Shown piece after piece: positions 1 through 14,026 of a stretch of 64,000 bases of DNA (position 1 is the first letter of the stretch; each line of letters begins with the position of its first letter). The translations under genes were made by a program, and so were the position numbers. The stretch covers positions 64,001 through 128,000 of the IMG/VR virus record IMGVR_UViG_3300033074_001484. One strand, given 5' to 3'. The notes under the pieces were generated by a model. The model did not search any database and was not told the DNA's origin. It worked only from the letters and a program-made list of their open reading frames with translations. This DNA comes from a virus. Taxonomy: Duplodnaviria; Caudoviricetes.

Positions 1-371
<371 letters not shown>

Positions 372-394
372 TTAAGTTAATAATCCGTGCCAGT

Positions 395-447
395 GTACAA
401 CAATGGCTATACGGTATTAAAACGACCGTTTAGCCCCATCGTTACCG
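395..447 (+). repeat. attC-like site 1
   Basis: GTACAAC-A...CTATACGG/CCGTTTAG arms...C-GTTACCG. Confidence 0.75.
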
Positions 448-723
448 GCAACGCTTCGACAACACATCATAAATGGACTTCAGTTTGATAGCAGCAAGCC
501 GGTGCTGTTCATTTACCGCAGCCGAACTATCTAACACTTTTCGCCTATCTTTCTTAGGCGTGCTTTTGGAAAACTGCCAATCTTCAGCAAAGCTGCTCGG
601 TGCGTTTCTAATAAGGCTTGCTGCTACCTTCAGTAACTCCGATAGGGCTATATCAACAGCACTGCCGGTAACAGGTGCATTGCTGCTATGTGGGCCGACG
701 GAAGTTGTTTCAACTGTATTCAT
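442..723 (-). CDS. hypothetical cassette protein; starts inside attC-like site 2
   Basis: 93-aa ORF; stop TAA is the TTA of the GTTACC core; ATG lies in the loop of the next site. Confidence 0.55.
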   Translation of the reverse strand: MNTVETTSVGPHSSNAPVTGSAVDIALSELLKVAASLIRNAPSSFAEDWQFSKSTPKKDRRKVLDSSAAVNEQHRLAAIKLKSIYDVLSKRCR

Positions 724-800
724 AAATTTTGCTTTTAGTTCTTAATTTGGGGCTGACGTGCAGGATTGCCCACACAGTCAGCAATGCTTCAACGTTAGCG
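666..800 (+). repeat. attC-like site 2
   Basis: CGGTAAC-A, arms GCATTGCTG..TGTGGGC / GCCCACA..CAGCAATGC, C-GTTAGCG. Confidence 0.8.
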
Positions 801-801
801 G

Positions 802-1215
802 CTATACTACCTGTCCCTTAAAATCTTCACCCCAATGATTATCCAAATCAGCATAGTCCAGTTTGACAAGCCGATTTCCATAATAACCATAGTTTGACAT
901 TGTATCATCACCGCCAAAATGTTTTTTAAACTCTGAAATATCTGTTATCGTTTCCCATTGTTCTCTTGTAATTGGCCTTGCTTTTTTCATAATCAAAATC
1001 CATCCACCCATCGAACACCAAACCACAGGACATAATAAATGAGATGTTCCTTTTTCAAACTTGCCACTATTAAACTTCCACGTTTGGTTTTCACTGATAT
1101 TACCAATTATGCCACGTAGAAAATGAGACCACTGACAAGTAAAGTTTGGTATCTTGACAACCACATTTTTAAACTCAATTACTATTCGTGTAACGCCTTT
1201 ACGATTTATTTTCAA
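802..1215 (-). CDS. minimal protein-kinase-like fold protein (cassette ORF)
   Basis: GVTR..VVVKIP, NxxE, LLCPV, ILIM, D-x4-NYG, KLDY motifs. Confidence 0.55.
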   Translation of the reverse strand: MKINRKGVTRIVIEFKNVVVKIPNFTCQWSHFLRGIIGNISENQTWKFNSGKFEKGTSHLLCPVVWCSMGGWILIMKKARPITREQWETITDISEFKKHFGGDDTMSNYGYYGNRLVKLDYADLDNHWGEDFKGQVV

Positions 1216-1241
1216 AGCTCACTACTGATTACCCGTACAGC

Positions 1242-1373
1242 CGCTAACATGAGTATTTATGTAAGTCGGGCTAACGGTAGTTAATTAATCGTTTTATCTT
1301 TATTCGGCTTTTGTTCAAGCATTGGGCTGACGAACATAAACTCCCGCCCTGCATAAATACCTGTTCGTTAGCA
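1242..1373 (+). repeat. attC-like site 3
   Basis: CGCTAAC-A, arms GTATTTATGTAAGTCGGG / CCCGCCCTGCATAAATAC, C-GTTAGCA. Confidence 0.8.
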
Positions 1374-1379
1374 CCAATA

Positions 1380-1613
1380 CTACGAATGTGCTTCAAAAAC
1401 TTGATTATCTCTTAATCGTATTCGCTCTCTTATAGTTTCGGCTAATCGTTCTACTTCATCAGAATAAGAACAAACAACTGTTCCATCATCCTTTTTTAAA
1501 ACTATCGGCATTGCATTTGCGTACAATTCAAATAATACTTTGAATAGTTCTTTTCTGTGGCTATCATTTAAAATAGCCTCTCTTTGTTTTTGGTAATACT
1601 TTTGGTCTTTCAT
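1380..1613 (-). CDS. hypothetical cassette protein
   Basis: 77-aa ORF bounded by GTTAGCACCA / TGGTGCTAAC. Confidence 0.7.
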   Translation of the reverse strand: MKDQKYYQKQREAILNDSHRKELFKVLFELYANAMPIVLKKDDGTVVCSYSDEVERLAETIRERIRLRDNQVFEAHS

Positions 1614-1648
1614 TCTATTTATATTTTGTTGTTAATAATCCGTACTGG

Positions 1649-1722
1649 TGCTAACAGCACATACACGCTATTTTGCCACGCTCAATCCAACGCTCACAGC
1701 GTGTATCTACAAAACGTTATGT
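1649..1722 (+). repeat. attC-like site 4
   Basis: TGCTAAC-AGCAC, arms ATACACGCT / AGCGTGTAT, AAAAC-GTTATGT. Confidence 0.8.
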
Positions 1723-1815
1723 ATTAGTGGCGGAGGTAGCTTCTCTGTTGTTCGGAATTAGTGTTGGGTTTACAGACCAAATGCAAAACCGAGCTTTAAT
1801 TTATCGCCACCTAAT

Positions 1816-1947
1816 ACATAACATTGTAAGCGTCAGTTGGGGCTATGTGCAGGTAATTACAACTTTTCCCCTATTCGGTTGTACAGGCAGATGGAATTGC
1901 CACCCCCTCGAATACCCAACCGAACGCTTATACAAGTGCCGTTATAG
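1816..1947 (+). repeat. attC-like site 5
   Basis: ACATAAC-A, arms TTGTAAGCGT..GTTGGG / CCCAAC..ACGCTTATACAA, C-GTTATAG. Confidence 0.75.
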
Positions 1948-1953
1948 GTAAGG

Positions 1954-2151
1954 CTATTCTACCACCTTAGAAATTTTTTCAAGTTTGGCATCTAATAATT
2001 GTTTGAAATAGTATTGATGCGTACAGTTTGGATTGGAACATTTTTTTATGTTCACTTCATTTGTTTCACCATCAAATTTATGGGTGGTTAATATTTCACC
2101 TTCATTGCATTTACCACACTTGAAAATGTGAGTGTTGTTTACTTTTGCCAT
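1954..2151 (-). CDS. small zinc-ribbon protein (cassette ORF)
   Basis: CGKC...CSNPNC; bounded by GTTATAGGTA / TACCTATAAC. Confidence 0.65.
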   Translation of the reverse strand: MAKVNNTHIFKCGKCNEGEILTTHKFDGETNEVNIKKCSNPNCTHQYYFKQLLDAKLEKISKVVE

Positions 2152-2178
2152 TCTTTTAAGTTTTGTGAGAAGCCCTAC

Positions 2179-2209
2179 CTATAACAGCACATAGGTAATA
2201 ACGTTATAG
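2179..2209 (+). repeat. attC-like site 6, internally deleted
   Basis: CTATAAC-AGCAC...AAC-GTTATAG spanning only 31 bp; arms lost. Confidence 0.65.
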
Positions 2210-2370
2210 CCAATGCTGAATAACCAACAGGGCTAAAAACATTCCTATAATAATTAACACACCTTTCATCCACCAAAAGGGATTCTCGGTTGTCTTTCTT
2301 TCTCGTTCTAAGTCAATCCACTTGTAATCTGTTTGTTTTTTCATAATTCAAAATTGGTTAAAAGCACTGG

Positions 2371-2414
2371 CTATAACACGGGATAAAACAACTGTTTAGC
2401 CCTGTCCATTATAG
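2371..2414 (+). repeat. attC-like site 7, degenerate
   Basis: CTATAAC-A start; right core mutated to ATTATAG; shortened. Confidence 0.55.
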
Positions 2415-2648
2415 GGCATTTACAATCCCACTTAGCTCATCAATCCAATCTTCGACCATTTTGAAAGCATAATCTCTTTCAGTCCAGTCATTTTTTTCAT
2501 CCCAATTTTTCATCCTTCCCTGTAACTCCTTTAGGAAGTCAAGGTCTCTTTTTGATTGCTCCCACTTTTCCATCTCAAAGTCGGATTTTTGTTTGAAGAC
2601 TACCTGTTTCAAGTCTTCAATTTCAGATTTTAGTTTATCGTTACTCAT
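2409..2648 (-). CDS. hypothetical cassette protein
   Basis: 79-aa ORF whose stop overlaps the degenerate core. Confidence 0.7.
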   Translation of the reverse strand: MSNDKLKSEIEDLKQVVFKQKSDFEMEKWEQSKRDLDFLKELQGRMKNWDEKNDWTERDYAFKMVEDWIDELSGIVNAL

Positions 2649-2939
2649 TTCGTTAAATTGACAATTATTAGTTCCAAAGCCGTCAATTCGTTAAGCACGA
2701 CAAAGAATATAAACCATAAAAACTACTCACTTTTAGCTTTCATATCGTGTTTATACCTTATATAAGAGTTCACAAAAAAGAATAGGCTTGTAAGTAGCCA
2801 AATCCAAGTCGTAAAATCTCTATCGTTTTCAATGTCGTATGCAAATGCAATCCATAGTAACACGCCTATTCCAAATAAAATGTATCTCACGATTCCGTAA
2901 TTTTTACAGGTCCATATTCAAGTCCGTTATGTACAAGCA

Positions 2940-3398
2940 CTACTTATCGTATCCTAAACGAACTGCTGTGTTTCTCATAATGTCGCAAAGCTGTTCAGAT
3001 AATTCAAACCGCCCTTTATTTATCTCAATGGATTTCATTATGTCTCCATCGGCGGTCCTTTCGGCGGCAGCTTTCCAATCGAAGAACATTTCCATCAAAT
3101 CAAATAAATCAAACCCATTTACACCATTTTCGTAATGCTCAGGGTGATGGCTGTTATTTTTGTAATGATGATCAAGGGCTACTTTCAACCCCTTCAAAAA
3201 CTCTTTGTACTCATCACTTCCATAAGTGCAATTTTTAAGTTTAGGCGTGTACTCATCAAATAATTCCTTTTCAGGGCTTTCCAGTTTTGAATTATCATGA
3301 ACATTGGCACGTCTAATCAATTCACTTGCTGCCTCTACCAATAATTGGTTTACTCTTTTGATGTGTAGTAGAGTATCTGCTGTGCTATCGTATTTCAT
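2940..3398 (-). CDS. HD-like metal-binding protein (DUF5662-like; cassette ORF)
   Basis: H..HDNSK..HHYKNNSHHPEH..EMFFDW; bounded by GTTATGTAC (2926) / GTACATAAC (3431). Confidence 0.7.
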   Translation of the reverse strand: MKYDSTADTLLHIKRVNQLLVEAASELIRRANVHDNSKLESPEKELFDEYTPKLKNCTYGSDEYKEFLKGLKVALDHHYKNNSHHPEHYENGVNGFDLFDLMEMFFDWKAAAERTADGDIMKSIEINKGRFELSEQLCDIMRNTAVRLGYDK

Positions 3399-3432
3399 AT
3401 TTATAAATTTTCGTTGTTAAACCCGTGTCAGT

Positions 3433-3494
3433 ACATAACACAGGCTATAAAATCATTTCGTTCCTCAACGCTTCATATACACAAAACGTTAGGC
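3433..3494 (+). repeat. rightmost attC-like site
   Basis: ACATAAC-ACAGG...AAAAC-GTTAGGC. Confidence 0.7.
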
Positions 3495-3595
3495 TTCATT
3501 TGCCCACGCACACAAACCCAACATTTTTCTTTTGACATGTGCCTAAATTTAATGGTTGACAATATACAAAACCATAACATGTGATTAAATGCTTA

Positions 3596-3823
3596 CTATA
3601 TAAAATCTTCAATTTCCGCCTCCCAGTCTATACAATCACCTTCCCGGATATTGTCCATCAACCATTGTAACGCCTCTGGATATTCTGATACGCCGCCAAG
3701 GTGAATGTCATTACCATTTTCATTTGCCTCGTGTATTTGATCATAAACGTCGTTTGGCATTTCGACATCACATAATGTTACTCGGTAGGATATTCTTACC
3801 GTTAAATCTTTTACTGTTGCCAT
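3596..3823 (-). CDS. hypothetical protein
   Basis: 75-aa acidic ORF, co-directional with neighbours. Confidence 0.65.
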   Translation of the reverse strand: MATVKDLTVRISYRVTLCDVEMPNDVYDQIHEANENGNDIHLGGVSEYPEALQWLMDNIREGDCIDWEAEIEDFI

Positions 3824-4013
3824 GCTTTATTCAGTTTTATTGTTGGTAATTTATACGACATAAAGGTTCCACTTTTCTTCAAAGAATTTCCAAAATCTCC
3901 AACAAGGTTCAAAATATCTATCCGATGAAAATTCTTTAACAATTTCCCCAAGGTTTTTCCGGCTATCACATTTTTTGCACGTAATCGATCCATAGCATTT
4001 TGTATTTGGAAAG

Positions 4014-4358
4014 CTACAACATAGCTGATTCAAATTCATCAACTGTGTCAAATCCAATATTAAACCCGATAAATTTTTTACCATCATGCACCAATTCATC
4101 GACACAGCCCTGCGTGTCAACATAGAAAATTTGCTGTCCGGAAAATCCTTCAAGGTTTAAAATTTCAGCAACAACTCGTTCGGCTGAATTTGTTATCGAC
4201 ATACCAACATTGGTATCTTCCAACAGTATAAATGCCGGATTTACAAGTTTTACAGTGTAGTTTTGCATAGCACAATTGAATTTAGCGGAAGTAGTGAGGA
4301 TCGAACTCACACACCAGTTTACCGGTGAACTCGGATTAGCAATCCGGCACTTTACCAT
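4014..4358 (-). CDS. hypothetical protein (true start may be the internal MQNY)
   Basis: SITNSAERVV..FYVDTQG..DEL resembles a small phage protein family. Confidence 0.6.
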   Translation of the reverse strand: MVKCRIANPSSPVNWCVSSILTTSAKFNCAMQNYTVKLVNPAFILLEDTNVGMSITNSAERVVAEILNLEGFSGQQIFYVDTQGCVDELVHDGKKFIGFNIGFDTVDEFESAML

Positions 4359-4377
4359 TCAGTCATACTTCCGAGCA

Positions 4378-4599
4378 TTATCCCCAAACAATACCGTTTA
4401 CACATGCACGGCAACGTTCATCATAGTTATCATCTGCCGCAGTGTATTCAGTTGACCGCCATGTTCGATAAAATCCGGTAGGAACCACGCCGGAACCACC
4501 ACATACCGGGCATTTATGGGGCATCGGCTTAATTCTCGAAGGTTCATACTTCGGCAATCGTGGGGTTAAAGTTTCTTCAACTTCAGTTAGTTTACACAT
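4378..4599 (-). CDS. small DnaJ-type zinc-finger protein
   Basis: CPVCGGSG...CRACVNG. Confidence 0.6.
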   Translation of the reverse strand: MCKLTEVEETLTPRLPKYEPSRIKPMPHKCPVCGGSGVVPTGFYRTWRSTEYTAADDNYDERCRACVNGIVWG

Positions 4600-4633
4600 A
4601 ACATTTGATTTAATTAGTTTAAATAATTCAGTG

Positions 4634-4707
4634 TAGGGATGAGCGGATTTGAACCGCTGACCTTCTTCTTATCAGAAAGATATTCTAACCAACTGAACTA
4701 CATCCCC
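4634..4707 (-). tRNA. tRNA-Ile(GAU)
   Basis: Cloverleaf GGGGATG/CATCCCT, loop CTGATAA, TTCAAAT. Confidence 0.92.
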
Positions 4708-4908
4708 ATTATTTTAATAGTTCCCTTATAAGCAATAACGCACCTATCACGTTAATTATAAGTAGTGCGGTTATTATTGTCACAGCATGTCGCGTGGTCA
4801 TGGTTGAATTTGTTATCATCCCAAATTCTGCCCCTATATTGACCAGCAGTAATTTGATCACTCGTCCAATTACAGTTTTTTGAATCATTCATACCCCTTG
4901 TTTTATTG

Positions 4909-4982
4909 TGGCCCGTGAAGGAATTGAACCTCCAACCTGTTGATTATGAGTCAACTGCTCTAACCTATTGAGCTAACGGACC
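4909..4982 (-). tRNA. tRNA-CAU, probably Ile2 (lysidine type)
   Basis: GGTCCGT/ACGGGCC, loop CTCATAA; body resembles ileX-type tRNAs. Confidence 0.85.
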
Positions 4983-4992
4983 TTAATAAATG

Positions 4993-5064
4993 CGGAGATT
5001 CGGGAATTGAACCCTGCCCTTGTGCTTTTCAGGCACACGCTCTCACCATGTGAGCTAAATCTCC
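4993..5064 (-). tRNA. tRNA-Phe(GAA)
   Basis: GGAGATT/AATCTCC, loop CTGAAAA. Confidence 0.9.
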
Positions 5065-5075
5065 TTGTTAACAAC

Positions 5076-5345
5076 TCAAACTTCTTCTTTTAAACGATCC
5101 ACCATAATATCCCGGCTTTCCCGGTCAATTATAAGTGATCCATCGGCACCTTCACGTGCTACCAATGCAAATGTAAGCATATTACCAACATCATGATGGG
5201 CCGATATTAGAGATTGGTTTAGATATTCTGAATACTCACGTTGCAATTCGTCATATTTAGAATGCCAATATTCAACCTCAGCGGTGAGATTGTCGACCTC
5301 ATTGCATAGTGAAAGAACCGTTCTGTCAAATGCATTTGTTTTCAT
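5076..5345 (-). CDS. hypothetical coiled-coil protein
   Basis: 89-aa ORF. Confidence 0.65.
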   Translation of the reverse strand: MKTNAFDRTVLSLCNEVDNLTAEVEYWHSKYDELQREYSEYLNQSLISAHHDVGNMLTFALVAREGADGSLIIDRESRDIMVDRLKEEV

Positions 5346-5350
5346 CGTAG

Positions 5351-5881
5351 TTATTTTTTACGTAGATTCTTTAGATCATTGTACCGATCTATAAATATCA
5401 TCTTTTGCAATGCCGAGGATGATATATATGGAGGTGTCATATGGTTGTTTAGCAAAAATTTTTCTTCATATTCCAATGCAGCATGGTCCGCAGCTTTCAC
5501 GGCAGGTGGCATGTCATCATCCAATCCAAATTTACGATATATAGCTTTCATCAAACTTTTTTCCAACTCAATGTACTGTGGAAGTTTCTGTTTTATTGGC
5601 GACGGCATATCAGTTAAATATGCTTCAGATGCATCGTGTAGTAATGCATGTAGTCGTATTTCTACCGGTTCATCCTGTACAAATTCTTCGCACCATATTG
5701 AATGTGCGGCAACTGAATAAAATACAGTCGTATGGCCGGAGAATCTGCATGTGTGACTAAGTGCATGTGCAATATCCACGATATTAATATGTTCCGGTTT
5801 AGGATCGAAAACATTTATAAATTTACCTGTAAATGTTTTGATCACACCAAGTTCATAAGCATTTATTTCGGAAATTTTCAT
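5351..5881 (-). CDS. HD-domain phosphohydrolase (YfbR-like 5'-deoxynucleotidase family)
   Basis: DIAHALS..RFSGH..YSVAAHS..LLHDASEAY..D..P.K. Confidence 0.9.
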   Translation of the reverse strand: MKISEINAYELGVIKTFTGKFINVFDPKPEHINIVDIAHALSHTCRFSGHTTVFYSVAAHSIWCEEFVQDEPVEIRLHALLHDASEAYLTDMPSPIKQKLPQYIELEKSLMKAIYRKFGLDDDMPPAVKAADHAALEYEEKFLLNNHMTPPYISSSALQKMIFIDRYNDLKNLRKK

Positions 5882-5901
5882 AATTAAAATTTATATGTGT
5901 A

Positions 5902-6144
5902 TTAATAAGCATGAACTATTGTGCCGCCAACTTGGTGCCCATGTACAAGTATCCCCTGTGCGATATGCCAACGGGTAGAACTGGACCATATCTTACCGGT
6001 CGAATCCACACATGTAATTCTATCGAACGACTTCGATACCAAAATTATTGGTGGTGTGAGTTTTGGAAACTCACAATCCGGGTTGTTGCATATGTCCGAT
6101 GTACAAGACGCCATCAGGCATAATATTAATAACAGTCTCAACAT
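5902..6144 (-). CDS. putative lipoprotein
   Basis: Signal peptide with lipobox MASC. Confidence 0.6.
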   Translation of the reverse strand: MLRLLLILCLMASCTSDICNNPDCEFPKLTPPIILVSKSFDRITCVDSTGKIWSSSTRWHIAQGILVHGHQVGGTIVHAY

Positions 6145-6407
6145 AACTCTAATTTAATTGTGTGTGGTATGATTCGGGTTGCGTTGTACCATACTTCATA
6201 AGGTATTTTCATACAATAATCGCAATCACATGGTTCCGGTTCTAACTCATAAGTACTCCATTGCTCTACATAGAATAATTCCTCAGCAATTATTTTCTTT
6301 TGAGCTAATCTCGCTTTACCTTTACTCGGAATTACTGCTGCGCATATACCGCATTTATCATGACCATGTATTTTTGACGCATTTTTACTCATTCCGTATG
6401 GTCGCAT
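6138..6407 (-). CDS. hypothetical protein
   Basis: 89-aa ORF with CxxC pairs. Confidence 0.55.
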   Translation of the reverse strand: MRPYGMSKNASKIHGHDKCGICAAVIPSKGKARLAQKKIIAEELFYVEQWSTYELEPEPCDCDYCMKIPYEVWYNATRIIPHTIKLELC

Positions 6408-6426
6408 TATTTCTCCTTTTTAATTC

Positions 6427-6519
6427 TGGTGCCTCCGGTAGGACTCGAACCTACAATGTTTACCCTGTGGGACTGGTTTTACAGACCAGTGCGAGACCAA
6501 CCATCCTCGCAGCGTCGGC
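6427..6519 (-). tRNA. tRNA-Tyr(GUA), atypical
   Basis: Loop CTGTAAA, long variable arm, encoded CCA; two acceptor mismatches and a 5-bp D stem. Confidence 0.8.
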
Positions 6520-6584
6520 ATAAAATGGCGGGAGCCATAACCATCCCGCCATTCCGTAAGGTTTCATTACATTGTCTTCTCTTT

Positions 6585-6860
6585 TTAGTTTTTAACTGGA
6601 ACTGGAAAATCAATTGCTGATAAAAGCGTCATCAATCCATAATCGGCTTCTTCCCAAGTATTTCCACGGATTGTGAGACCAAATGTACCAGTACCTAAAC
6701 ATGCTACAAAATTTGGACCGATCAATATCGGCCTTCTTGCCCAAAATTGCTTCAATTCTTTTTTTGAATATTCAAAACTTTGGAAGTGCTGCAAAAACGG
6801 ATACATATCATTATATGATGTAATCGTAATAACTGGTATTCTAACCATTTTAATTATCAT
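6585..6860 (-). CDS. hypothetical protein
   Basis: 91-aa ORF. Confidence 0.5.
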   Translation of the reverse strand: MIIKMVRIPVITITSYNDMYPFLQHFQSFEYSKKELKQFWARRPILIGPNFVACLGTGTFGLTIRGNTWEEADYGLMTLLSAIDFPVPVKN

Positions 6861-6973
6861 TGGTTTGTACTCCTGTCCGGACTCAAATCACATAACCGTT
6901 CTTAGCTGCTGGATTTTAAAAATACCACATGTCTGGCAATTCCACTACAGAAGGATATAACTTAAATTTTTTG

Positions 6974-7000
6974 GGTGTCTAACGGGACTGCTATAGACAC
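6974..7000 (-). pseudogene. collapsed tRNA remnant, probably His
   Basis: GTGTCTA-TAGC fused directly to AGTCCCGT-TAGACAC-C; D loop through T loop deleted; C73. Confidence 0.6.
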
Positions 7001-7002
7001 AG

Positions 7003-7077
7003 TGCCCACAGAGGGACTCGAACCCCCAAAATACCTGTTCCTAAGACAGGCGTGTATTCCAATTCCACCATGTGGGC
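7003..7077 (-). tRNA. tRNA-Leu(UAG) with short variable loop
   Basis: GCCCACA/TGTGGGC, loop CTTAGGA, 75 nt. Confidence 0.88.
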
Positions 7078-7082
7078 AATAA

Positions 7083-7745
7083 TTAATACATTAGTTCCGG
7101 GTCTTGCACAAACCCGTAATTTTTAAGTTTTGCGATTGTTGAACCAGTTGAAATTGAACCAATTTTTTGTATCAACTTAATCATATACTCAGGTGTGATT
7201 TCCCAATTGCGTTTTTGAAATGACATCATCCTGTTGATTAGCTTGTATAAATCTTTCGAGTCAAATCCATCCGCAGGTATAAGCCGTCTCGCCATAATAT
7301 CATCTATAACTGTATATGATGGACATATAATAGTGTTGGTTAAACATCGAACAGCAACTTGATTACATGTTAGATCAAACCCATTTAACAGTGTTAAAAC
7401 ATCATCATCAAGAGTTAACTTGTTTACACTGTCACCTTTATCAATAAATTGTATTTTATATGTTTTAGAATCGTGCTTACACGTGAACTCATCCATTACC
7501 CCTCCACAGCTTCGAGTTAATTTACAATCATATTTGCGGCAAAATTCGTGTATAAGCTGCACATCATTTCTATTGGATGATGTATAAAATACATCAACAT
7601 CGTTATATTGTACCCCCAATATACTATCACGGATTGCGCCACCGGCAACCACTATGGTTTTACTATCTAAGTTACCCAACACAAATGCTAAAAAGTTGTC
7701 AATTTTAACAGTTTGAGGGATGAGCTTATCATACGTTATAAACAT
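7083..7745 (-). CDS. class II nucleotidyltransferase (CCA-adding/poly(A) polymerase head-like)
   Basis: VAGGAIRD..DVDVF..FDLTCNQ. Confidence 0.75.
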   Translation of the reverse strand: MFITYDKLIPQTVKIDNFLAFVLGNLDSKTIVVAGGAIRDSILGVQYNDVDVFYTSSNRNDVQLIHEFCRKYDCKLTRSCGGVMDEFTCKHDSKTYKIQFIDKGDSVNKLTLDDDVLTLLNGFDLTCNQVAVRCLTNTIICPSYTVIDDIMARRLIPADGFDSKDLYKLINRMMSFQKRNWEITPEYMIKLIQKIGSISTGSTIAKLKNYGFVQDPELMY

Positions 7746-7778
7746 ATTATTAAAATTTTATGTGAACAATCAAGTTAG

Positions 7779-7852
7779 TAGTTGTGGATGGATTTGAACC
7801 ACCGACATCCTGTTTGTAAAACAGGTGCTCTGACCCCCTGAGCTACACAACC
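7779..7852 (-). tRNA. tRNA-Val(UAC)
   Basis: GGTTGTG/CACAACT, loop TTTACAA. Confidence 0.9.
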
Positions 7853-7854
7853 AA

Positions 7855-8409
7855 TTAGTTATATTTATCAACTGAAAACTTAAAATGCGGATATTTTCGC
7901 CTTAGTCCCGGAAGTATTATTTTATCAATTATTTGATACAGATTCATGCTCTCAATTCGTTTAAACACCCTAAACACATTTGGATACGATATAAGTGTTT
8001 TAATTACCTGATATTTATCCTTCTCAAAGAATTTTTTGGTAAAAACAATCTCTTTGATATATTTTGATGCCGGGCGTATGCCGTCCCCGAACCGATCACC
8101 CGACCACATCTCTTCTGCCTCGTCCCCCCAATCACTTCCCGGCATACTATGTCCTGCATTGATGGGTTCGGACTTATACACGTCGGACATTTTGTCCCCA
8201 TCCAATGCAATGCGAATAGACATATCTGATCCGATTTTGCGACGAGGGTCAATATGAAATAATTTATCTCGCGTGGTAGATAAACGGTCCTTTCCCCATA
8301 TTAAATCTTGTTGTAATATACGAGGGAGTGCTTCAAACGATGTGAAGTGGTATACGATGCCAACGTGTTTTCGCTCATTTAACAATTGATACAGTTTTGT
8401 TAACTTCAT
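7855..8409 (-). CDS. ADP-ribosyltransferase-fold protein
   Basis: Start moved to MKLTKLYQLLNE because the longer ORF overlaps tRNA-Ser; VYHFT..LSTTRD..DEAEE. Confidence 0.6.
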   Translation of the reverse strand: MKLTKLYQLLNERKHVGIVYHFTSFEALPRILQQDLIWGKDRLSTTRDKLFHIDPRRKIGSDMSIRIALDGDKMSDVYKSEPINAGHSMPGSDWGDEAEEMWSGDRFGDGIRPASKYIKEIVFTKKFFEKDKYQVIKTLISYPNVFRVFKRIESMNLYQIIDKIILPGLRRKYPHFKFSVDKYN

Positions 8410-8422
8410 ATCACTCCAATTG

Positions 8423-8515
8423 CGATGGACAGAGGACTCGAACCCCAACCAAGCTACTAACCCGGTCCACCAGTTTTCAAGACTGGGGCAGCACCCACTG
8501 GCCGCATTATCCATC
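8423..8515 (-). tRNA. tRNA-Ser(UGA), atypical D arm
   Basis: GATGGAT/GTCCATC, G73, loop CTTGAAA, long variable arm. Confidence 0.82.
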
Positions 8516-8524
8516 AAACATACA

Positions 8525-8833
8525 TTAATGGCATGTATTTATGCAAGTATCGCACAATATATATGCCGACTGATATACTGGAACTGTGTCACACATTCCC
8601 GATGACAGTTCAACACCTTCAAATCGGGAACTGTTTATTTTTTGAGTTATCCGAATTTTCTCAGATGTGTGCGTATCAATTACAATATCACCAACTTCAA
8701 TTCCATTAATCGGAAATTGAGAGAGTGGATGATATTCACTATCGATACACCCCATAAAAATCAAAAAACTAATTAATGTTAATAGTCTCATTTTATACTC
8801 CATTTTCAAATAGTACCTACAAATATATATCAA
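8525..8833 (-). CDS. putative lipoprotein (start probably at MRLL)
   Basis: MRLLTLISFLIFMGC lipobox-like signal. Confidence 0.55.
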   Translation of the reverse strand: MIYICRYYLKMEYKMRLLTLISFLIFMGCIDSEYHPLSQFPINGIEVGDIVIDTHTSEKIRITQKINSSRFEGVELSSGMCDTVPVYQSAYILCDTCINTCH

Positions 8834-8844
8834 AACAAGTTAAT

Positions 8845-8918
8845 TGGAAGACATAGATGGAATCGAACCATCGTATCAGGTTTTGCAGACCTGCACCTAA
8901 CCACTCGGCCATATGTCC
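8845..8918 (-). tRNA. tRNA-Cys(GCA)
   Basis: Loop CTGCAAA, U73, encoded CCA. Confidence 0.92.
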
Positions 8919-9269
8919 AGTTTCAAATTGTTTTTAAATTAAAAAAAAGGGGTGGGGTTAGAATTTTTAAGACCTCGGTCACAGGAGTGTTAGCATATTT
9001 CAGGATTGCTCCATTGTCGCCGTCCCCCGGCCCCTTTTAATTGACGGTAAGAGCGAATCAAGAGTGTTTTATCCTGTGGCTACAAAGAAACACACAACGT
9101 TCGCCCGGATTTTTAGATTCGCTTCACCATCATTTTTGTTTAGGCTACTTTATCCGCACTTCTTTGGCGACCACCCCAACCAGTTTGCATCAATTTCACC
9201 AAGGTAGCATAACATCTTCATTGGTTAGAATCCGACTTCTGCTGCCTATCTTTTTTTATTAACATTTTG

Positions 9270-9355
9270 TACCGCTGACAGGACTTGAACCTGCACGACC
9301 ATTACTGGTCGTTGGGGCTTAAACCCAATGTGTCTGCCATTTCCACCACAGCGGC
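9270..9355 (-). tRNA. tRNA-Leu(UAA)
   Basis: GCCGCTG/CAGCGGT, loop TTTAAGC, long variable arm. Confidence 0.92.
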
Positions 9356-9442
9356 AAATAATCAGATCACAAATCTCCGACATTAAACGGGACTCTGCCA
9401 AACATTTGATTAGATATTTTTTTATATAATATGTTAAATTGG

Positions 9443-9976
9443 TTATTTGATAACGTTAATTACCGCATCATTAAATATGACAAGAATATCGTCATTCACA
9501 TCATTGACCACCCGCATTCCGGAAATCCCGGCTCTTGAAAGAAATTCACTAACATCTTTAAATGATTTCAGATGGTTGCGGTAAATTCGCATCAGGAATT
9601 CATAGAATTCATATACATCAGATAAAACAGAGAATTTGCCATACTTTGGATTATTGAAAAACTCATCGGCCTTGAACCATGACATAGATTCCAACTTCAA
9701 TTGCCTGTATATTTTTTTCAATTGAGTTGGCGTGACTTTCTTATATAATATATCTGCTGAAGGGTCTATGGTCACTTGCGTTACAACTGGACCATACGTT
9801 TTAGCCCGATTCGGATCGGAAATAAAATATAAACCATACCCATGATAATTCGATATAGAACGACCCCCCTGCCCTATTTTAGACATTGAGAATTTCTTTA
9901 TTGGCATAGATGAGCCATGATACCACGTCATTTTTGATGTGGTATTAATACTCTCAAGAATATGCACTAATTGCAT
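9443..9976 (-). CDS. ADP-ribosyltransferase-like protein (ART-PolyVal-like)
   Basis: WYHGS..F..GYGLYFI..A..YG..LVIFN pattern. Confidence 0.7.
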   Translation of the reverse strand: MQLVHILESINTTSKMTWYHGSSMPIKKFSMSKIGQGGRSISNYHGYGLYFISDPNRAKTYGPVVTQVTIDPSADILYKKVTPTQLKKIYRQLKLESMSWFKADEFFNNPKYGKFSVLSDVYEFYEFLMRIYRNHLKSFKDVSEFLSRAGISGMRVVNDVNDDILVIFNDAVINVIK

Positions 9977-10185
9977 TACACTGAATCTGTCTTGTCCTTG
10001 GCAGCTTTAGTTGCCAATGCGGTGGCCTTTACCTCAGAAGGGTCTCGGCGATTGGTTTTTTCCCGAAAATGTTTTTGCTGAATTTCACTTGGAAACTTTT
10101 TCCACAACCAATGCTCGATTATTTCACCCTTTTTGTAACGGCTCCAGTCAGATGTGCATTCGTAAAGTTTCATATAATCCTCCAT
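9976..10185 (-). CDS. hypothetical protein
   Basis: 69-aa ORF with a TATTTAT motif upstream. Confidence 0.6.
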   Translation of the reverse strand: MEDYMKLYECTSDWSRYKKGEIIEHWLWKKFPSEIQQKHFREKTNRRDPSEVKATALATKAAKDKTDSV

Positions 10186-10360
10186 AATGTTTGTAAATAT
10201 AAATAGTGAAAATATTGATCAATCGTCAAATTCATGATTGCATTTGTTGCATATATACTTATAACCCATGTATTTGCCAATATCCACGACCACATGATGG
10301 CGGACATGAAAATACATACACCACACAAGTTTCAATGTTTTCATGATTAAATGTGTTTTG

Positions 10361-10436
10361 CGGTGTATATGGGAATTGAACCCATCTGATGTCCTGCGTG
10401 ACAGGCAGGTGGCCACACCATGCAGCCCCATACACC
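10361..10436 (-). tRNA. tRNA-Asp(GUC)
   Basis: GGTGTAT/ATACACC, G73, loop CTGTCAC. Confidence 0.9.
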
Positions 10437-10451
10437 TAAAATTACGGTTAG

Positions 10452-10523
10452 TAGTGCCGACGGGAATCGAACCCGCGTCACCGGATTGAAAGTCCGATAT
10501 CTTAACCACTTGACCACGGCACC
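10452..10523 (-). tRNA. tRNA-Glu(UUC)
   Basis: GGTGCCG/CGGCACT, loop CTTTCAA. Confidence 0.92.
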
Positions 10524-10526
10524 AAA

Positions 10527-10790
10527 TTAATCCTCATCGTAATGTTTATATAATCCTTCCATATACCCAATTATCCGCATCATACGTATTTTGACATACG
10601 TATTTTGAATTTGACGGGCTTTTTCGGCAAATTCTTTAGAAAACGCATCAAGTTCTTCTTTGTTAGATATTTTTTCTACACGTTTTTCAAATTCGTCCAA
10701 AATATCCCATTCTTTTTTTGCACGGCGGGAAACACTATACATTACCCACCCAAATAGTATAGTAACAATTACGATGATTAAGATTTCCAT
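10527..10790 (-). CDS. membrane-anchored hypothetical protein
   Basis: Start MEILIIVIV (longer ORF overlaps tRNA-Gly); N-terminal TM helix. Confidence 0.65.
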   Translation of the reverse strand: MEILIIVIVTILFGWVMYSVSRRAKKEWDILDEFEKRVEKISNKEELDAFSKEFAEKARQIQNTYVKIRMMRIIGYMEGLYKHYDED

Positions 10791-10810
10791 AGTCAATTGT
10801 AATTTAAAAT

Positions 10811-10884
10811 TGGAGCAGGTGCTGAGAATCGAACTCAGATATTCGGTTTGGAAGACCGACACATTACCGTTATGCTACACCTGC
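10811..10884 (-). tRNA. tRNA-Gly(UCC)
   Basis: GCAGGTG/CACCTGC, loop CTTCCAA, encoded CCA. Confidence 0.93.
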
Positions 10885-10890
10885 AAAACG

Positions 10891-10961
10891 CTGTCGCAAT
10901 AGGACTCGAACCTATAACAACTGATTAACAATCAGACGTGATACCATTTCACCATACGACA
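10891..10961 (-). tRNA. tRNA-Asn(GUU)
   Basis: TGTCGTA/TGCGACA, G73, loop TTGTTAA. Confidence 0.88.
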
Positions 10962-10969
10962 TCCCCGGC

Positions 10970-11128
10970 TTATTCGGGAGCTACTTCACTCGTCGAATCA
11001 ACAGTGACTGCCGGAGTATCGGAACTTACCGGCGCGTCGGGAGACGATTCAGGTGTTGATGTACAGGACACCATAGCCATGATAATGATGACCCCCAACA
11101 TACAATACAAAACGTTCTTCATAAACAT
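10970..11128 (-). CDS. small Ser/Pro/Thr-rich lipoprotein
   Basis: Own translation MFMKNVLYCMLGVIIIMAMVSCTSTPESSPDAPVSSDTPAVTVDSTSEVAPE; lipobox MVSC. Confidence 0.65.
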   Translation of the reverse strand: MFMKNVLYCMLGVIIIMAMVSCTSTPESSPDAPVSSDTPAVTVDSTSEVAPE

Positions 11129-11162
11129 AAATACCTCAATTTGGTTTGTTAATAAAAACTCG

Positions 11163-11233
11163 ACGCTCTGATGGGGATCGAACCCATATCATGAAATCCA
11201 AAGTTTCAGATGTTACCATTACACCACAGAGCA
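11163..11233 (-). tRNA. tRNA-Gln(UUG)
   Basis: TGCTCTG/CAGAGCG, loop CTTTGGA. Confidence 0.9.
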
Positions 11234-11238
11234 ATTTG

Positions 11239-11346
11239 TGACCTGAGTTGGACTCGAACCAACGTACTCGTGTTAGGTTCGCCCAAGATCATTAGGGAAG
11301 CCCGACCTAACCGTCAGTGTGTTTTATCCCGTTAAACTACCAAGTC
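11239..11346 (-). ncRNA. tRNA-like RNA with an expanded anticodon domain
   Basis: Intact acceptor, D and T arms; about 55-nt insert containing a GTTAGGT/ACCTAAC stem. Confidence 0.7.
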
Positions 11347-11380
11347 GCGGCTTCTTCTCATGCATGAGTTTTTTTAATTG

Positions 11381-11453
11381 CTCCGGCGACAGGACTCGAA
11401 CCTGCAACCTATTGATTACAAATCAATTGCACTACCAATTGTGCTACCCCGGA
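11381..11453 (-). tRNA. tRNA-Thr(UGU) with an Asn-like acceptor end
   Basis: Loop TTTGTAA; TCCGGGG/CGCCGGA, G73. Confidence 0.85.
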
Positions 11454-11531
11454 ATGGACAGGCATTTTTTATTGTTCTTTATGCGGCTACCCTGAATCCC
11501 CACACATCAGTTGAGAGCGACCCAACATTCG

Positions 11532-11605
11532 TGGATCAACCGGGACTTGAACCCGGACCATCTACCTTGCAAAGGTAGCGCATTATCCATTTTTGCTATT
11601 GACCC
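11532..11605 (-). tRNA. tRNA-Ala(UGC)
   Basis: G3:U70 pair, loop TTTGCAA. Confidence 0.92.
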
Positions 11606-11613
11606 ATTTTTTG

Positions 11614-11686
11614 TTGCAAATGTCGGACTCGAACCGCAATACTAAGTCCCAAACTTAGCGTGTTACCTGATTACACTACATTCGCA
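11614..11686 (-). tRNA. tRNA-Pro(UGG), possible 8/4 fold
   Basis: Loop TTTGGGA; acceptor TGCGAATG/CATTTGCA, short T stem. Confidence 0.8.
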
Positions 11687-11709
11687 ATATATTCTTTTAT
11701 TCTTTTTTG

Positions 11710-11781
11710 TACCTTCGGAAGGAATCGAACCCTCATTGCAGGAGTAGAAATCCTATGTCTTATCCGTTAGACGACGAAGGC
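11710..11781 (-). tRNA. tRNA-Arg(UCU)
   Basis: GCCTTCG/CGAAGGT, loop TTTCTAC. Confidence 0.9.
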
Positions 11782-11812
11782 AGTTGCTCTATCCTGCTGA
11801 GCTATGGGAGTG
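11776..11812 (-). pseudogene. 5'-half remnant of a second Arg-like tRNA
   Basis: CTCCCATAGCTCAGCAGGATAGAGCAACT runs into GCCTTC, the start of tRNA-Arg(UCU). Confidence 0.6.
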
Positions 11813-11851
11813 AAATAATCTACTTCAATTACCGGCAAGCTCACCCATTTG

Positions 11852-11951
11852 TAGCAACGGAGAGAATCGAACTCCCATGTCTTAAAGTTTTTACATTATT
11901 ATACTTTAAAACCTATACAAGTAATGAGCTTGTATCCACCAGAGCGTTGCT
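11852..11951 (-). ncRNA. D-arm-less tRNA-like RNA (CAU) with a giant variable arm
   Basis: AGCAACG/CGTTGCT acceptor; TACAAG-CTCATTA-CTTGTA arm; canonical T arm. Confidence 0.7.
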
Positions 11952-11964
11952 ATATTTATTTTTG

Positions 11965-12069
11965 TAGTCAGGGCTGGATTTGAACCAGCAATGGACAGTT
12001 CGGCGCCTGTCCTCGAAAACCACGGTCTGTCTCCGTTTATCTAGCGTCTACCAATTCCGCCACCTGACT
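11965..12069 (-). ncRNA. Leu-like tRNA mimic with a non-canonical anticodon arm
   Basis: AGTCAGG/CCTGACT; Leu-type D arm GGCGGAATTGGTAGACGC; loop AGACAGA lacks U33. Confidence 0.7.
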
Positions 12070-12325
12070 ATTTTAGTTGTGAATGAAATGCTTTATCAGT
12101 TCCATCAAACTCAACGGCTCTATAGTACGTGTTTATCCCTCCTATCATCTTTCCATCGTCCTTATGGCAGTCACAGTCTTTAAAACATTGACAACCCTTA
12201 TAACGGAAGATGTATCTTTCATCTTTTTCCCACTTTCTAAAGTTTTGTCCATTGTGCTCAATAATTGGTAATGAGTTTAGAAACTCATTTGATACCAATC
12301 GTAATGGATTAAGTATCTTCTTCAT
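12068..12325 (-). CDS. hypothetical protein
   Basis: Start MKKILNP; CQCFKDCDC cluster. Confidence 0.55.
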   Translation of the reverse strand: MKKILNPLRLVSNEFLNSLPIIEHNGQNFRKWEKDERYIFRYKGCQCFKDCDCHKDDGKMIGGINTYYRAVEFDGTDKAFHSQLK

Positions 12326-12341
12326 TGTTTGATAGTTTAAA

Positions 12342-12568
12342 AACCAACCCGCCCACTCCAATTGTGGAGTATTTTAGTATGTCCAAGAATCGGCATTTGC
12401 TCAAATTCTCTGCCTCTGTCAACGGCAAGTTTAACGACTTATTACAAAACTAAAATACATTCATCCAGACCTAAACACCTCTTGGATGGTGTTGGTAACA
12501 ACCTTTCTAAAGGGCATTAATATCCAGTTACGACTGGTGTTACCTGTCTGTAATGAATCGGGTTGGTT
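12342..12568 (-). ncRNA. candidate multi-branched structured RNA (about 227 nt)
   Basis: Perfect 10-bp closing helix AACCAACCCG/CGGGTTGGTT plus several nested stems; no credible ORF. Confidence 0.55.
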
Positions 12569-13012
12569 ATTTTAAGTTAGAAAAAAATCCCATATAAAGA
12601 AGCCTTTTATATGGGCAAACTGGTACCACCCAGTTTCATGGTACTTCAGCAAGGTTCTGCCTAACAAACCTAATAATATTTTCGGCAGTTGGTTATTATT
12701 TCACCCGGCTTGTAAAGATGAATTTTACCCAATTACGAAGTCACTTTATAATACTCAAACAGCCAAAGTGACAAATCGCATTTGGTAGATGCGTTTTCTG
12801 TTTGAGGTTTAATATTTGATCAGAGTAAAAAAACAAATTTCAAAGAACAAAACCTCTGATTAAACCACCCCGCTTCGGTCTATCCACACGGTGGTTTTTT
12901 TATTCTTAGGCACGGAAAAAAATTGCAGAACTGTCGTGTTTGCCTTTTAAATTCAGCCGGTTATACCCTGACAGTTGGGATGCGGTTAAACCCCGCTCTT
13001 TGCCACTCTGCA

Positions 13013-13272
13013 GTGAACTACCCATTTGCTAAAGACAAATGGGCTTCGGGCTTCACGGACGACTGCTGATTGCTCAGTCTAACATCATCTCCACCCGTGT
13101 AATCGCCAGTTCCTGACGATATTGTTTTTAATCCTTCTTTCAGAATGTTCTTTGCAGCATTTAAATCACGGTCTAAAACGTGTCCGTTTTTGCAAGTCCA
13201 TTCTCTTATTGAAAGATTTAAGTCTTGATTTATCCAACCACACTCACAACAGGTTTTACTTGATGGGTAAAA
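13013..13272 (-). mobile_element. tnpB: IS200/IS605-family remnant: tnpB 3' fragment with right end / omega-RNA region
   Basis: Own translation [38 protein letters not shown]; subterminal hairpin CCCATTTG/CAAATGGG ending TTCAC. Confidence 0.88.
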
Positions 13273-13324
13273 GCATATAAATCACTATATAAGATATCAA
13301 CGTTATTGTCAATGGTATAGTGTC

Positions 13325-13531
13325 TTAATTCAAGTTTTTTTGCATATCTTTTGCTATCTGGGCATACTCATACGCCTCATCTTCAACACAGGCTTTAATA
13401 AATGCCTGTAAATCTTCATCTGTTGCATCTGTTAAAAACTGTACGACCTCATCTTTATTTTTGAATAATACGGAAGGTCTACAAAGCTCTTCATACCGTT
13501 CAATCAATTGTGATAACGTCATTTTTTTCAT
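13325..13531 (-). CDS. hypothetical protein with a UVR-like C-terminus
   Basis: Start MKKMTLSQLIE (longer ORF overlaps tRNA-Arg); EDEAYEYAQIAKD. Confidence 0.6.
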   Translation of the reverse strand: MKKMTLSQLIERYEELCRPSVLFKNKDEVVQFLTDATDEDLQAFIKACVEDEAYEYAQIAKDMQKNLN

Positions 13532-13542
13532 ATATCTATTTT

Positions 13543-13617
13543 TGGTACCCTTGGAAGGACTCGAACCCTCATCTTCGGAGCCGAAATCCGGCATTCTATC
13601 CATTGAACTACAAAGGC
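13543..13617 (-). tRNA. tRNA-Arg(UCG)
   Basis: Loop TTTCGGC, encoded CCA. Confidence 0.9.
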
Positions 13618-13665
13618 AAATGATGTCCGATGAATACATTGCCGACACACTACAATATATTTACC

Positions 13666-13837
13666 GGACCCGCACAATACACATATTTTGTGTTACGACA
13701 TACTGTTTCCAGCATGAAGGCACAAGGAAGGGTTTCTAATCCGCTTCTGAATCTTCACGAACTCCTGTGTGCTGCCGAGCTTTTTAAAAAAACTCTCATG
13801 GTCACCCGCAACCTAAACGGTTAAGTTGGTAGGGGCC
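13666..13837 (-). ncRNA. candidate structured RNA (about 170 nt)
   Basis: Closing GGCCC/GGGTC and five hairpins including CATGCTG-GAAA-CAGTATG. Confidence 0.45.
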
Positions 13838-13877
13838 AATAACGCTAAAATGTCAAACAACTTTTATACAACTTTTG

Positions 13878-13953
13878 TGGCAGGGGCGGGACTCGAACCC
13901 GCATCATCCGGCTTATGAGACCGGCACTGGTGGCCATTCCAGACTACCCTGCT
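13878..13953 (-). tRNA. tRNA-Met(CAU), initiator-like
   Basis: A1xC72 mismatch, loop CTCATAA. Confidence 0.85.
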
Positions 13954-13956
13954 ATG

Positions 13957-14026
13957 TACCCCCGGATGGAATCGAACCATCGTCTTACGATTAAAAGTCG
14001 AAGCTCTACCATTGAGCTACGAGGGC
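13957..14026 (-). tRNA. tRNA-Lys(UUU)
   Basis: GCCCTCG/CGGGGGT, loop CTTTTAA. Confidence 0.9.

Follow-up and report, generated by a model that had tools for sequence, protein, structure and literature searches.

A probable integron-like cassette array with inverted gene orientation in a phage genome

Introduction

In classical integrons the cassettes face away from the integrase so that one promoter expresses them, and the field holds that the opposite orientation is never seen. Here we ask whether this rule extends to a phage locus (Duplodnaviria; Caudoviricetes) where small genes alternate with attC-like hairpins and appear to point the other way. The DNA analysed, called the window hereafter, is a stretch of 64,000 nucleotides (positions 64,001 to 128,000 of IMG/VR record IMGVR_UViG_3300033074_001484); it is a piece of a large phage genome in which the long open reading frames (ORFs) lie almost all on the minus strand. 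Between positions 402 and 3487 of the window, gene "bodies" and imperfect hairpins take turns. An earlier inspection of the letters alone (the sequence-only reading) proposed that the plus strand is the attC top strand, that the cassette ORFs are inverted relative to it and that one ORF is translated out of its own site. Our results make it likely that we see here the end of an integron-like cassette array, belonging to a kind that occurs in Flavobacteriia phages, with the genes on the folding and recombining strand and a site located 5' of each gene.

Results

Bodies with private inverted repeats alternate with hairpins

On the plus strand, bodies start with GTTA and end with TAAC; most carry one small minus-strand gene. 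Each is bounded by a terminal inverted repeat of about 9-16 nt that is particular to it; we call the two copies arms. The hairpins between bodies (39-121 nt) read AAC-A...C-GTT on the plus strand and are made up of a short spacer, a long stem with imperfect pairing and a loop that varies in size, with seven such sites in 3.1 kb (Table 1). All credible array ORFs lie on the minus strand, co-directional with the rest of the phage, and three have family support (3-368, 802-1215 and 2940-3398). Stop codons fall 0-14 nt from the GTT core (8 nt for ORF 802, 13 for 1380 and 1954, 14 for 2940), and the core TTA is itself the stop of ORFs 442-723 and 2204-2344, as well as of 2409-2648, where the core is degenerate (ATTA). 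The sequence-only reading had thus described correctly the direction of the ORFs, the stops within about 15 nt of the core and the core stops of 442-723 and 2409-2648, to which 2204-2344 is added here.

Six bodies in a row (C1-C6) each carry a private terminal inverted repeat, which exceeds what chance would give. Repeats with at most one mismatch numbered five in the whole window, all inside this 2-kb stretch; a looser search over the window gave 37 matches against 28-47 in shuffled sequences, that is, no excess, and the bare TAAC...GTTA pattern was not more frequent than expected by chance. Across all fetched loci, the arms paired without hard mismatch on the gene-sense strand in 68 bodies, and in only 7 when the same test was applied to the other strand. 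A G.T pair stood at position 11 from the core in 48 of the 68 paired bodies. The longest open frame was on the strand bearing the G.T pair in 74 of 85 fetched bodies, where it covered a median 91% of the body, and the stop codon most often lay 13 or 1 nt before the body end (n=85). The terminal repeats were dropped as a test of orientation, being compatible with both, and accounts of the transposon, repetitive extragenic palindrome (REP), pdif or telomere-resolvase type were set aside because no defining feature was present.

The gene-sense strand resembles an attC bottom strand

In attC sites, the bottom strand holds more G.T pairs (1.24 vs 0.39 per site) and folds more stably than the top strand (Nivina et al. 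2016). Across 15 hairpins of the present type, 35 G.T pairs were counted on the gene-sense strand vs 8 on the other, and the gene-sense strand folded more stably in 14 of the 15 (Wilcoxon p = 0.0008). This bias matches the bottom-strand signatures of attC and therefore points to the gene-sense (minus) strand as the bottom strand. In the gene-sense direction, the spacers were 5.3 nt on the 5' side, next to the 5' AAC, vs 2.5 nt on the 3' side. Scored by attC features taken from the same study, the sites showed RYYYAAC...GTTRRRY cores on either side of an imperfect hairpin, spacers that remain unpaired, and folding that favours the bottom strand.

The order of the elements can be read in the same way. 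In arrays that include a recombinase gene (see below), the strand opposite the genes shows first the antisense recombinase gene, next the attI-like site, and then G|TT, body and hairpin repeated along the array, with a hairpin last. This is the classical integron map, the sole change being that the genes lie on the other strand. The array of the window ends in hairpin 3440-3487 followed by GTTA, as expected of the far end.

The hairpin at 402-440 (type s1) has a counterpart of 92% identity in Polaribacter phage P12002L, located between two methyltransferase genes. This counterpart was predicted as "attC1" by HattCI in the same orientation as the plus strand of the window; P12002L is listed as a cluster of attC sites lacking an integron-integrase (CALIN) whose attC sites are "divergent" (Qi et al. 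2023, PMC9892861). The s1 hairpin recurs at 95-100% identity in 21 IMG/VR contigs, where it always separates the start and leader of one gene from the end of another. Among about 185,000 bacterial species genomes, one contains it: the single bacterial match to the s1 pattern lies in the alphaproteobacterium Yoonia maricola (NZ_PGTY01000002, 4581-4613; L023). The 11-nt loop of the s1-type hairpin, TCGTTTTAATG in gene sense, reappears in unrelated phages (L002, L005, L007) as the loop of empty bodies and of other hairpins, suggesting that the loop itself is conserved.

Altogether, the strand bias, the position of the recombinase, the inserts of the Freya phages described below and the HattCI orientation of the P12002L site support the plus strand as the integron-type top strand, as proposed from the AAC-A...C-GTT asymmetry, with cassette genes that would be inverted in the frame of a classical integron. 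The reverse assignment, in which the minus strand is the top strand, is contradicted by the G.T and stability bias, the array order and the Freya cassettes.

Units are inserted at one core beside a tyrosine recombinase gene

Body C3 (1367-1655) has a copy of 90% identity in G025, a complete 68-kb phage with a recombinase gene, and this copy ties the window to recombinase-bearing arrays. The gene of the G025 recombinase (263 residues) comes immediately downstream of an array and has the same orientation, with 41 nt between the ...CCTAAC that closes the last body and the recombinase ATG. This protein has 26 relatives in IMG/VR. Wherever upstream sequence exists, sense-strand bodies lie upstream of the recombinase gene and end in ...AAC, followed by a conserved attI-like stretch; in about 20 loci a recombinase of the PF00589+PF13495 type is directly downstream of sense-strand bodies. 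In the related loci only one body was found downstream of the recombinase gene, and antisense bodies were almost absent. In gene sense the order is thus (hairpin+body)n, AAC|attI-like site, recombinase gene, in which the body adjoining the attI-like site abuts it with no hairpin between and the far array end is a hairpin.

The array-linked recombinases of the relatives (251-264 amino acids) score 126-156 bits, in two stretches, vs a cut-off of 265 for TIGR02249, and their best profile is the XerA-type NF040815 (169-187 bits vs a cut-off of 220). An IntI-type integrase with the IntI-specific extra domain was found neither in the window nor among the recombinases of the relatives. A weak recombinase-like match at 25821-25931 of the window was rejected, as it lies inside a DUF2334 protein.

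Cultured Polaribacter phages Freya_1 to Freya_10 (MT732463-MT732472) encode this recombinase, preceded by 82 to 4179 nt of small co-directional genes; this integrase was taken as a sign of a temperate lifestyle (Bartlau et al. 2021). The isolates differ chiefly in the count of small genes before the integrase (0 to about 10), which occupy the first 50-4150 nt of the records. Freya_9 and Freya_10 are 100% identical on both flanks of one 307-bp insert (3793 nt on the upstream side, 1500 nt on the downstream side), and Freya_5 and Freya_6 are identical around a 472-bp insert. The inserts stand between ...CCAAC and ACCCCTATAAC, upstream of the integrase gene, and each consists of a spacer, a hairpin and then GTTA-body-TAAC, with genes co-directional with the integrase. 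Insertion maps to the AAC core, the exact phosphodiester within AAC lying below the resolution of the sequences. Elsewhere, backbones diverge exactly at AAC| in the contig pairs L071/L072 (99.9% identical), L074/L076 (96.8%) and L070/L076. As in integrons, insertion in all these pairs is at the AAC/GTT core of an attI-like site beside the recombinase gene.

Two otherwise unrelated contigs (L009 and L022) have in common a 306-bp block at 100% identity. The block is exactly a hairpin plus a body, with ...TATAAC at both edges, and represents a recent transfer.

One cassette gene starts inside its hairpin

ORF 442-723 has its ATG (721-723) in the loop of hairpin 673-793, behind an AT-rich leader, and then continues across the stem's 3' half and through the box GTTACCGGCAGTGCT, where it codes for VTGSA. 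The start in the loop and the passage through the box are as the sequence-only reading had them. Body C1 has no leader, and no in-frame ATG follows position 723, so that translation cannot begin downstream of the site. In five homologues of the product (73-85% identity), few or no residues change between V18 and the C-terminus, and this conserved span runs exactly from the 5' arm (GTT ACC GGC AGT GCT = VTGSA) to the 3' arm (TGC CGG TAA). Their N-terminal 9-60 residues cannot be aligned, and the reading frame stays open through the arm. In a metagenomic homologue with 50% identity the arms are different yet again complementary (GTTAGTTGCAGTGCT / GCATTGCAACTAAC), showing that pairing is preserved at the price of amino-acid changes. 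No further relatives of the ORF were found in IMG/VR, and two were found in metagenomes. This conservation argues that ORF 442-723 is a real gene whose start lies in a hairpin loop, and the alternative of a start downstream of the site is countered both by the absence of an in-frame ATG and by the frame that homologues keep through the arm.

The arrangement recurs. In 10 of 58 classifiable bodies (about one in six) the only ATG is upstream of the 5' arm, at 51-63 nt in nine and at 135 nt in one, and the Freya_10 cassette, shown by its insertion to be one mobile unit, encodes a single 81-residue protein (gp10, 3844-4089 of the record) whose start codon likewise sits in the hairpin loop and whose frame extends through stem and arm. 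With a site 5' of the gene, the loop can hold a leader and a start codon. In the Freya_6 insert (L083, 465-936) the hairpin loop contains a complete 71-residue gene and the body a second one, a layout by which one mobile unit can carry two genes, one of them within the folded site.

Promoters with a sigma-70-type or Bacteroidota-type consensus were not found in the hairpins above chance, nor was a T-run found after the stems (both in 1-4300). The Bacteroidota-type pattern TTTG-N17-23-TAnnTTTG occurs 10 times in the window vs 4.2 expected, and 0 times in the array. The earlier proposal of a distinct cassette class, in which a 5' attC may supply expression signals or N-terminal coding sequence, therefore stands for the 5' site, the start codon and the N-terminus, the only expression signals supported being translation starts; it found no support as regards promoters.

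Bodies and hairpins travel together recently and separately over longer times

Body C3 was found in six contexts including the window (86-96% identity), and the homology ends 0-11 nt from GTTA and TAAC. That the neighbouring hairpins had simply diverged fast was rejected, because local alignment scores between them fell within the range of shuffled sequences. Hairpin and body go together in recent events (L009/L022 and the Freya cassettes) and separately for the homologues of C3 and C1. The simple unit of an ORF plus its own attC, as first supposed, thus describes recent events; over longer times body and hairpin part. A single integron-type crossover point keeps the hairpin with the body, and the C3/C1 pattern is not predicted by a strict integron mechanism. 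Either a second crossover point, perhaps through recombination of the other strand, or a different body-swapping process would account for it; other-strand recombination is perhaps possible because the hairpins are nearly symmetric. In contig L034 (IMG/VR 3300028920_000182, ~1466-1747) a C3 copy has a 3' arm with the barcode of another body (GCGGTA) and an unmatched 5' arm; it appears to be a recombinant or a decaying unit.

Discussion

How the array may work

We propose that the mobile unit, in gene sense, would be C-(spacer, imperfect hairpin, spacer)-GTTA-(body with gene)-TAA. In relatives that have the enzyme, a tyrosine recombinase of the Xer/IntI group (250-265 residues), encoded directly downstream of the array on the same strand, would catalyse events on folded single strands, and new units would enter at ...AA|C beside the conserved attI-like site that precedes its gene. 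The polarity of the site, the crossover point and the position of the recombinase agree with those of a classical integron. Here, the cassette genes would lie on the folding, recombining (bottom) strand and hence be directed toward the recombinase gene, with the folded site at their 5' side. In the excised circle, the two arms of a body would pair and so lengthen the R box by 9-16 bp, the conserved G.T lying at position 11; for Freya_10, the predicted circle junction is ...GTTGCTAA|C-GTTCTAC..., in which the 3' arm of the body is joined to the hairpin. Expression would occur by read-through of phage transcription, and the array of the present phage would either be served in trans or be a relic.

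Several observations weigh against this proposal. No recombinase gene was found in the 64-kb window, and PF00589 was not found in three complete phage genomes bearing the sites; among 26 further records, PF00589 was present in 2, one of them G025, and no recombinase was found in the other 24. BLASTP comparison of four array-bearing phages found no common protein fit to be the enzyme. Extrahelical bases are not consistently on one arm: the s1 type has an extra T on the expected arm, and several long hairpins have a single bulge on the other arm or none. P12002L attC1, the s1 homologue, is the sole one of six phage sites without verified IntI1 recombinants (Qi et al. 2023, PMC9892861). The hairpins that flank C3 are unrelated on both sides in all six contexts, and the homologues of body C1 have different upstream partners and N-termini. 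Finally, the mechanism is deduced from sequence comparisons throughout, recombination itself having not been observed.

Alternative explanations

Could the hairpins instead act in the mRNA, as punctuation or regulatory stem-loops akin to the promoter early stem-loops (PeSLs) of T4-type phages (PMC2839356, PMC4122927), through pairing of the 5' and 3' ends around each cistron, RNA processing or stability, with shuffling by homologous or microhomology recombination plus selection for units that are intact, and no dedicated recombinase? The pairing strand is always mRNA-sense with a conserved G.U at a fixed position, most site-bearing phages have no recombinase, bodies and hairpins re-assort independently, and an s1 hairpin that is 95-100% identical in unrelated phages could serve homologous exchange. 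This account would nevertheless leave unexplained why single units are inserted cleanly at a fixed base next to a tyrosine recombinase gene, where the flanking homology is only AAC, and why arrays are consistently located beside that gene; neither promoter nor terminator consensus was found in the sites. We consider it unlikely as a full explanation; an RNA role could coexist with recombination. A different view, that the array is an inactive, decayed relic from bacteria or other phages whose orientation merely reflects selection for co-transcription with phage genes, draws on the missing recombinase in the window, on the degenerate sites at 2186-2202 and 2378-2408, on the stretch 2409-2925 without arms, and on the L034 arms that no longer match. 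Yet six bodies in a row keep near-perfect arms with the conserved G.T, and the inverted orientation is family-wide, including arrays with single-cassette polymorphism, so that relic status would not explain it; we judge this view very unlikely.

The genes might also be in canonical orientation, the minus strand being the top strand and each gene being followed by its own attC, with crossover at the left (AAC) end of the hairpin in plus coordinates. The minus strand does look classical (gene, stop in or near ...TAAC, hairpin, GTTA), the terminal repeats fit equally, and Qi et al. (PMC9892861) oriented "attC2" of P12002L in this way and found it recombined by IntI1. Against this stand the body that abuts the attI-like site directly and the hairpin at the far end (in the window, 3440-3491), the Freya inserts that begin with a hairpin and finish with a body, and the G.T pairs and folding energies that point to the gene-sense strand as the folding strand. 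We therefore regard canonical orientation as highly improbable and retain the integron-like array with genes on the folding strand. An extension of the latter, which we put forward tentatively and hold to be rather doubtful, is an integron analogue of flavobacterial phages with two levels of modularity, where barcode-closed bodies and hairpins are separately exchangeable through a second crossover or the use of both strands, and where the hairpin donates a leader, a start codon and an N-terminal peptide, so that recombination creates new reading frames.

Relation to known systems

The system works like an integron yet departs from two defining traits, the type of integrase and the orientation of the genes. 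As in integrons, above all sedentary chromosomal ones, and in the CALINs of virulent phages, AAC...GTT cores surround an imperfect hairpin with asymmetric spacers, and HattCI calls the s1 type as attC. The window fits the CALIN description, since seven hairpin sites are gathered within 3.1 kb and no recombinase was found in the 64 kb, CALIN being used as a descriptive label. Also shared with integrons are a folding strand that is more stable and richer in G.T, first cassette bases that complement the box before the hairpin, AA|C insertion beside a conserved site that adjoins a tyrosine recombinase gene, the sense strand of this gene being the one that folds, and turnover by whole cassettes. 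In contrast, the genes here are carried by the folding (bottom) strand in 74 of 85 bodies and face the recombinase gene, whereas classical cassette genes are on the top strand, are followed by their attC, face away from intI and attI and are expressed from Pc; the recombinase has 250-265 residues and falls below the IntI cut-off (150-156 vs 265 bits, in two stretches); the R-box pairing is extended to 9-16 bp, cassette-specific and with a fixed G.T; sites can be partly coding; body and hairpin re-assort; and IntI1 did not recombine the P12002L homologue of s1. A search with promoter consensus sequences found no Pc-like promoter.

PeSL cassettes of T4-type phages are likewise small accessory genes in hyperplastic regions, each preceded by a stem-loop, with modules shuffled between phages; PeSLs are conserved promoter-terminator sequences that recombine by homology (Arbiol 2010, PMC2839356; Comeau 2014, PMC4122927). 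In the present array, by comparison, stem sequences vary and lack a promoter consensus; every body is bounded by an inverted repeat particular to it, and units enter at one base next to a tyrosine recombinase gene. The conserved early promoter and terminator stem-loop that mark a PeSL were not seen in 1-4300, where promoter matches were not above chance and no T-run was found.

In pdif modules of Acinetobacter plasmids and in integrative mobile elements exploiting Xer (IMEX) such as CTXphi, an Xer-group recombinase acts and modules are bounded by inverted short sites; CTXphi folds a single strand. The present array may be similar in these three respects, but it appears to have no 11-6-11 dif-like site, its sites being hairpins with AAC/GTT cores.

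In the literature searched, no description of such a system was found, including integron-like phage systems in Bacteroidota. What the present analysis contributes is that the genes are inverted, that the site can serve as coding sequence and that body and hairpin re-assort. A whole family of phage arrays has the orientation that the field regards as absent, with genes read toward the recombinase gene within one-directional phage transcription. This orientation explains why integron-finding tools return "divergent" or unusable attC calls in these phages, and pipelines that pair each gene with the attC after it would cut these cassettes wrongly. A recombination site can, moreover, be coding sequence and provide a start codon. 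The cultured Freya_1 to Freya_10 and their host offer a direct test system, in which cassette gain is visible between isolates.

Features of the array and its surroundings

Table 1. Features at the array end of the window (plus-strand coordinates; aa, amino acids)
Positions	Strand	Feature	Basis or remark
3-401	-	Body with RNase T/DnaQ-like exonuclease gene (3-368), running past the window edge	Leader; 5' arm ends GTACAAC (395-401)
402-440	-	Hairpin site s1, sequence-conserved type	92% identity to P12002L "attC1"
441-672	-	Body C1, arms 441-455/658-672	Conserved part of ORF 442-723; own start codon and leader absent
442-723	-	ORF, 93 aa, starting in the loop of hairpin 673-793, through stem and 5' arm	Homologue conservation
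673-793	-	Hairpin site s2, 19-pair stem, loop ~70 nt	AT-rich leader and ATG 721-723 inside
794-1248	-	Body C2, arms 794-807/1235-1248, ORF 802-1215 (phrog_4301)	Repeat search, family match
1249-1366	-	Hairpin site s3	Fold/pairing analysis
1367-1655	-	Body C3, arms 1367-1380/1642-1655, ORF 1380-1613	Same body in five viral contigs (86-90% nucleotide identity)
1656-1715	-	Hairpin site s4	Fold/pairing analysis
1716-1822	.	Body C4, no gene; arms of 17-18 nt (1716-1732/1806-1822), ~70 nt between	Repeat search
1823-1940	-	Hairpin site, 118 nt	Fold/pairing analysis
1941-2185	-	Body C5, arms 1941-1953/2173-2185, ORF 1954-2151 (65-aa Cys-rich protein)	Repeat search
2186-2202	.	17-nt linker where a hairpin is expected	Direct reading
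2203-2377	-	Body C6, arms 2203-2217/2363-2377, ORF 2204-2344 (46 aa, one hydrophobic stretch)	Stop is the core TTA
2378-2408	-	Degenerate s1-like hairpin, then ATTA instead of GTTA	Sequence comparison
2409-2925	-	Irregular stretch, ORFs 2409-2648 and 2723-2890	Partner arms searched, none matching
2926-3439	-	Body, 9-bp arms GTTATGTAC/GTACATAAC, ORF 2940-3398 (DUF5662)	Arms read directly from sequence
3440-3491	-	Last hairpin (3440-3487), then GTTA without partner arm: far array end	Direct reading

Beyond the array, 22 tRNA genes, all on the minus strand, occupy 4285-14026; they are mixed with small ORFs and lie directly upstream of the cassette array in the direction of transcription. An Rfam scan of the window returned these tRNAs and no other match. 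Among GenBank phages the window had no close match, and a 33-mer from it gave no hit in the IMG/VR collection searched. "Empty" bodies like C4 were also seen in other phages, for example at 3733-3793 of L085, directly before the attI-like site of Freya_9. The unrelated genes 3-368 and 1380-1613 have leaders that are 85-95% identical (354-395 and 1608-1650), first two codons included; this shared leader contains the motif GTACGGATTATTAAC (gene-sense), which is present in bodies of other phages as well.

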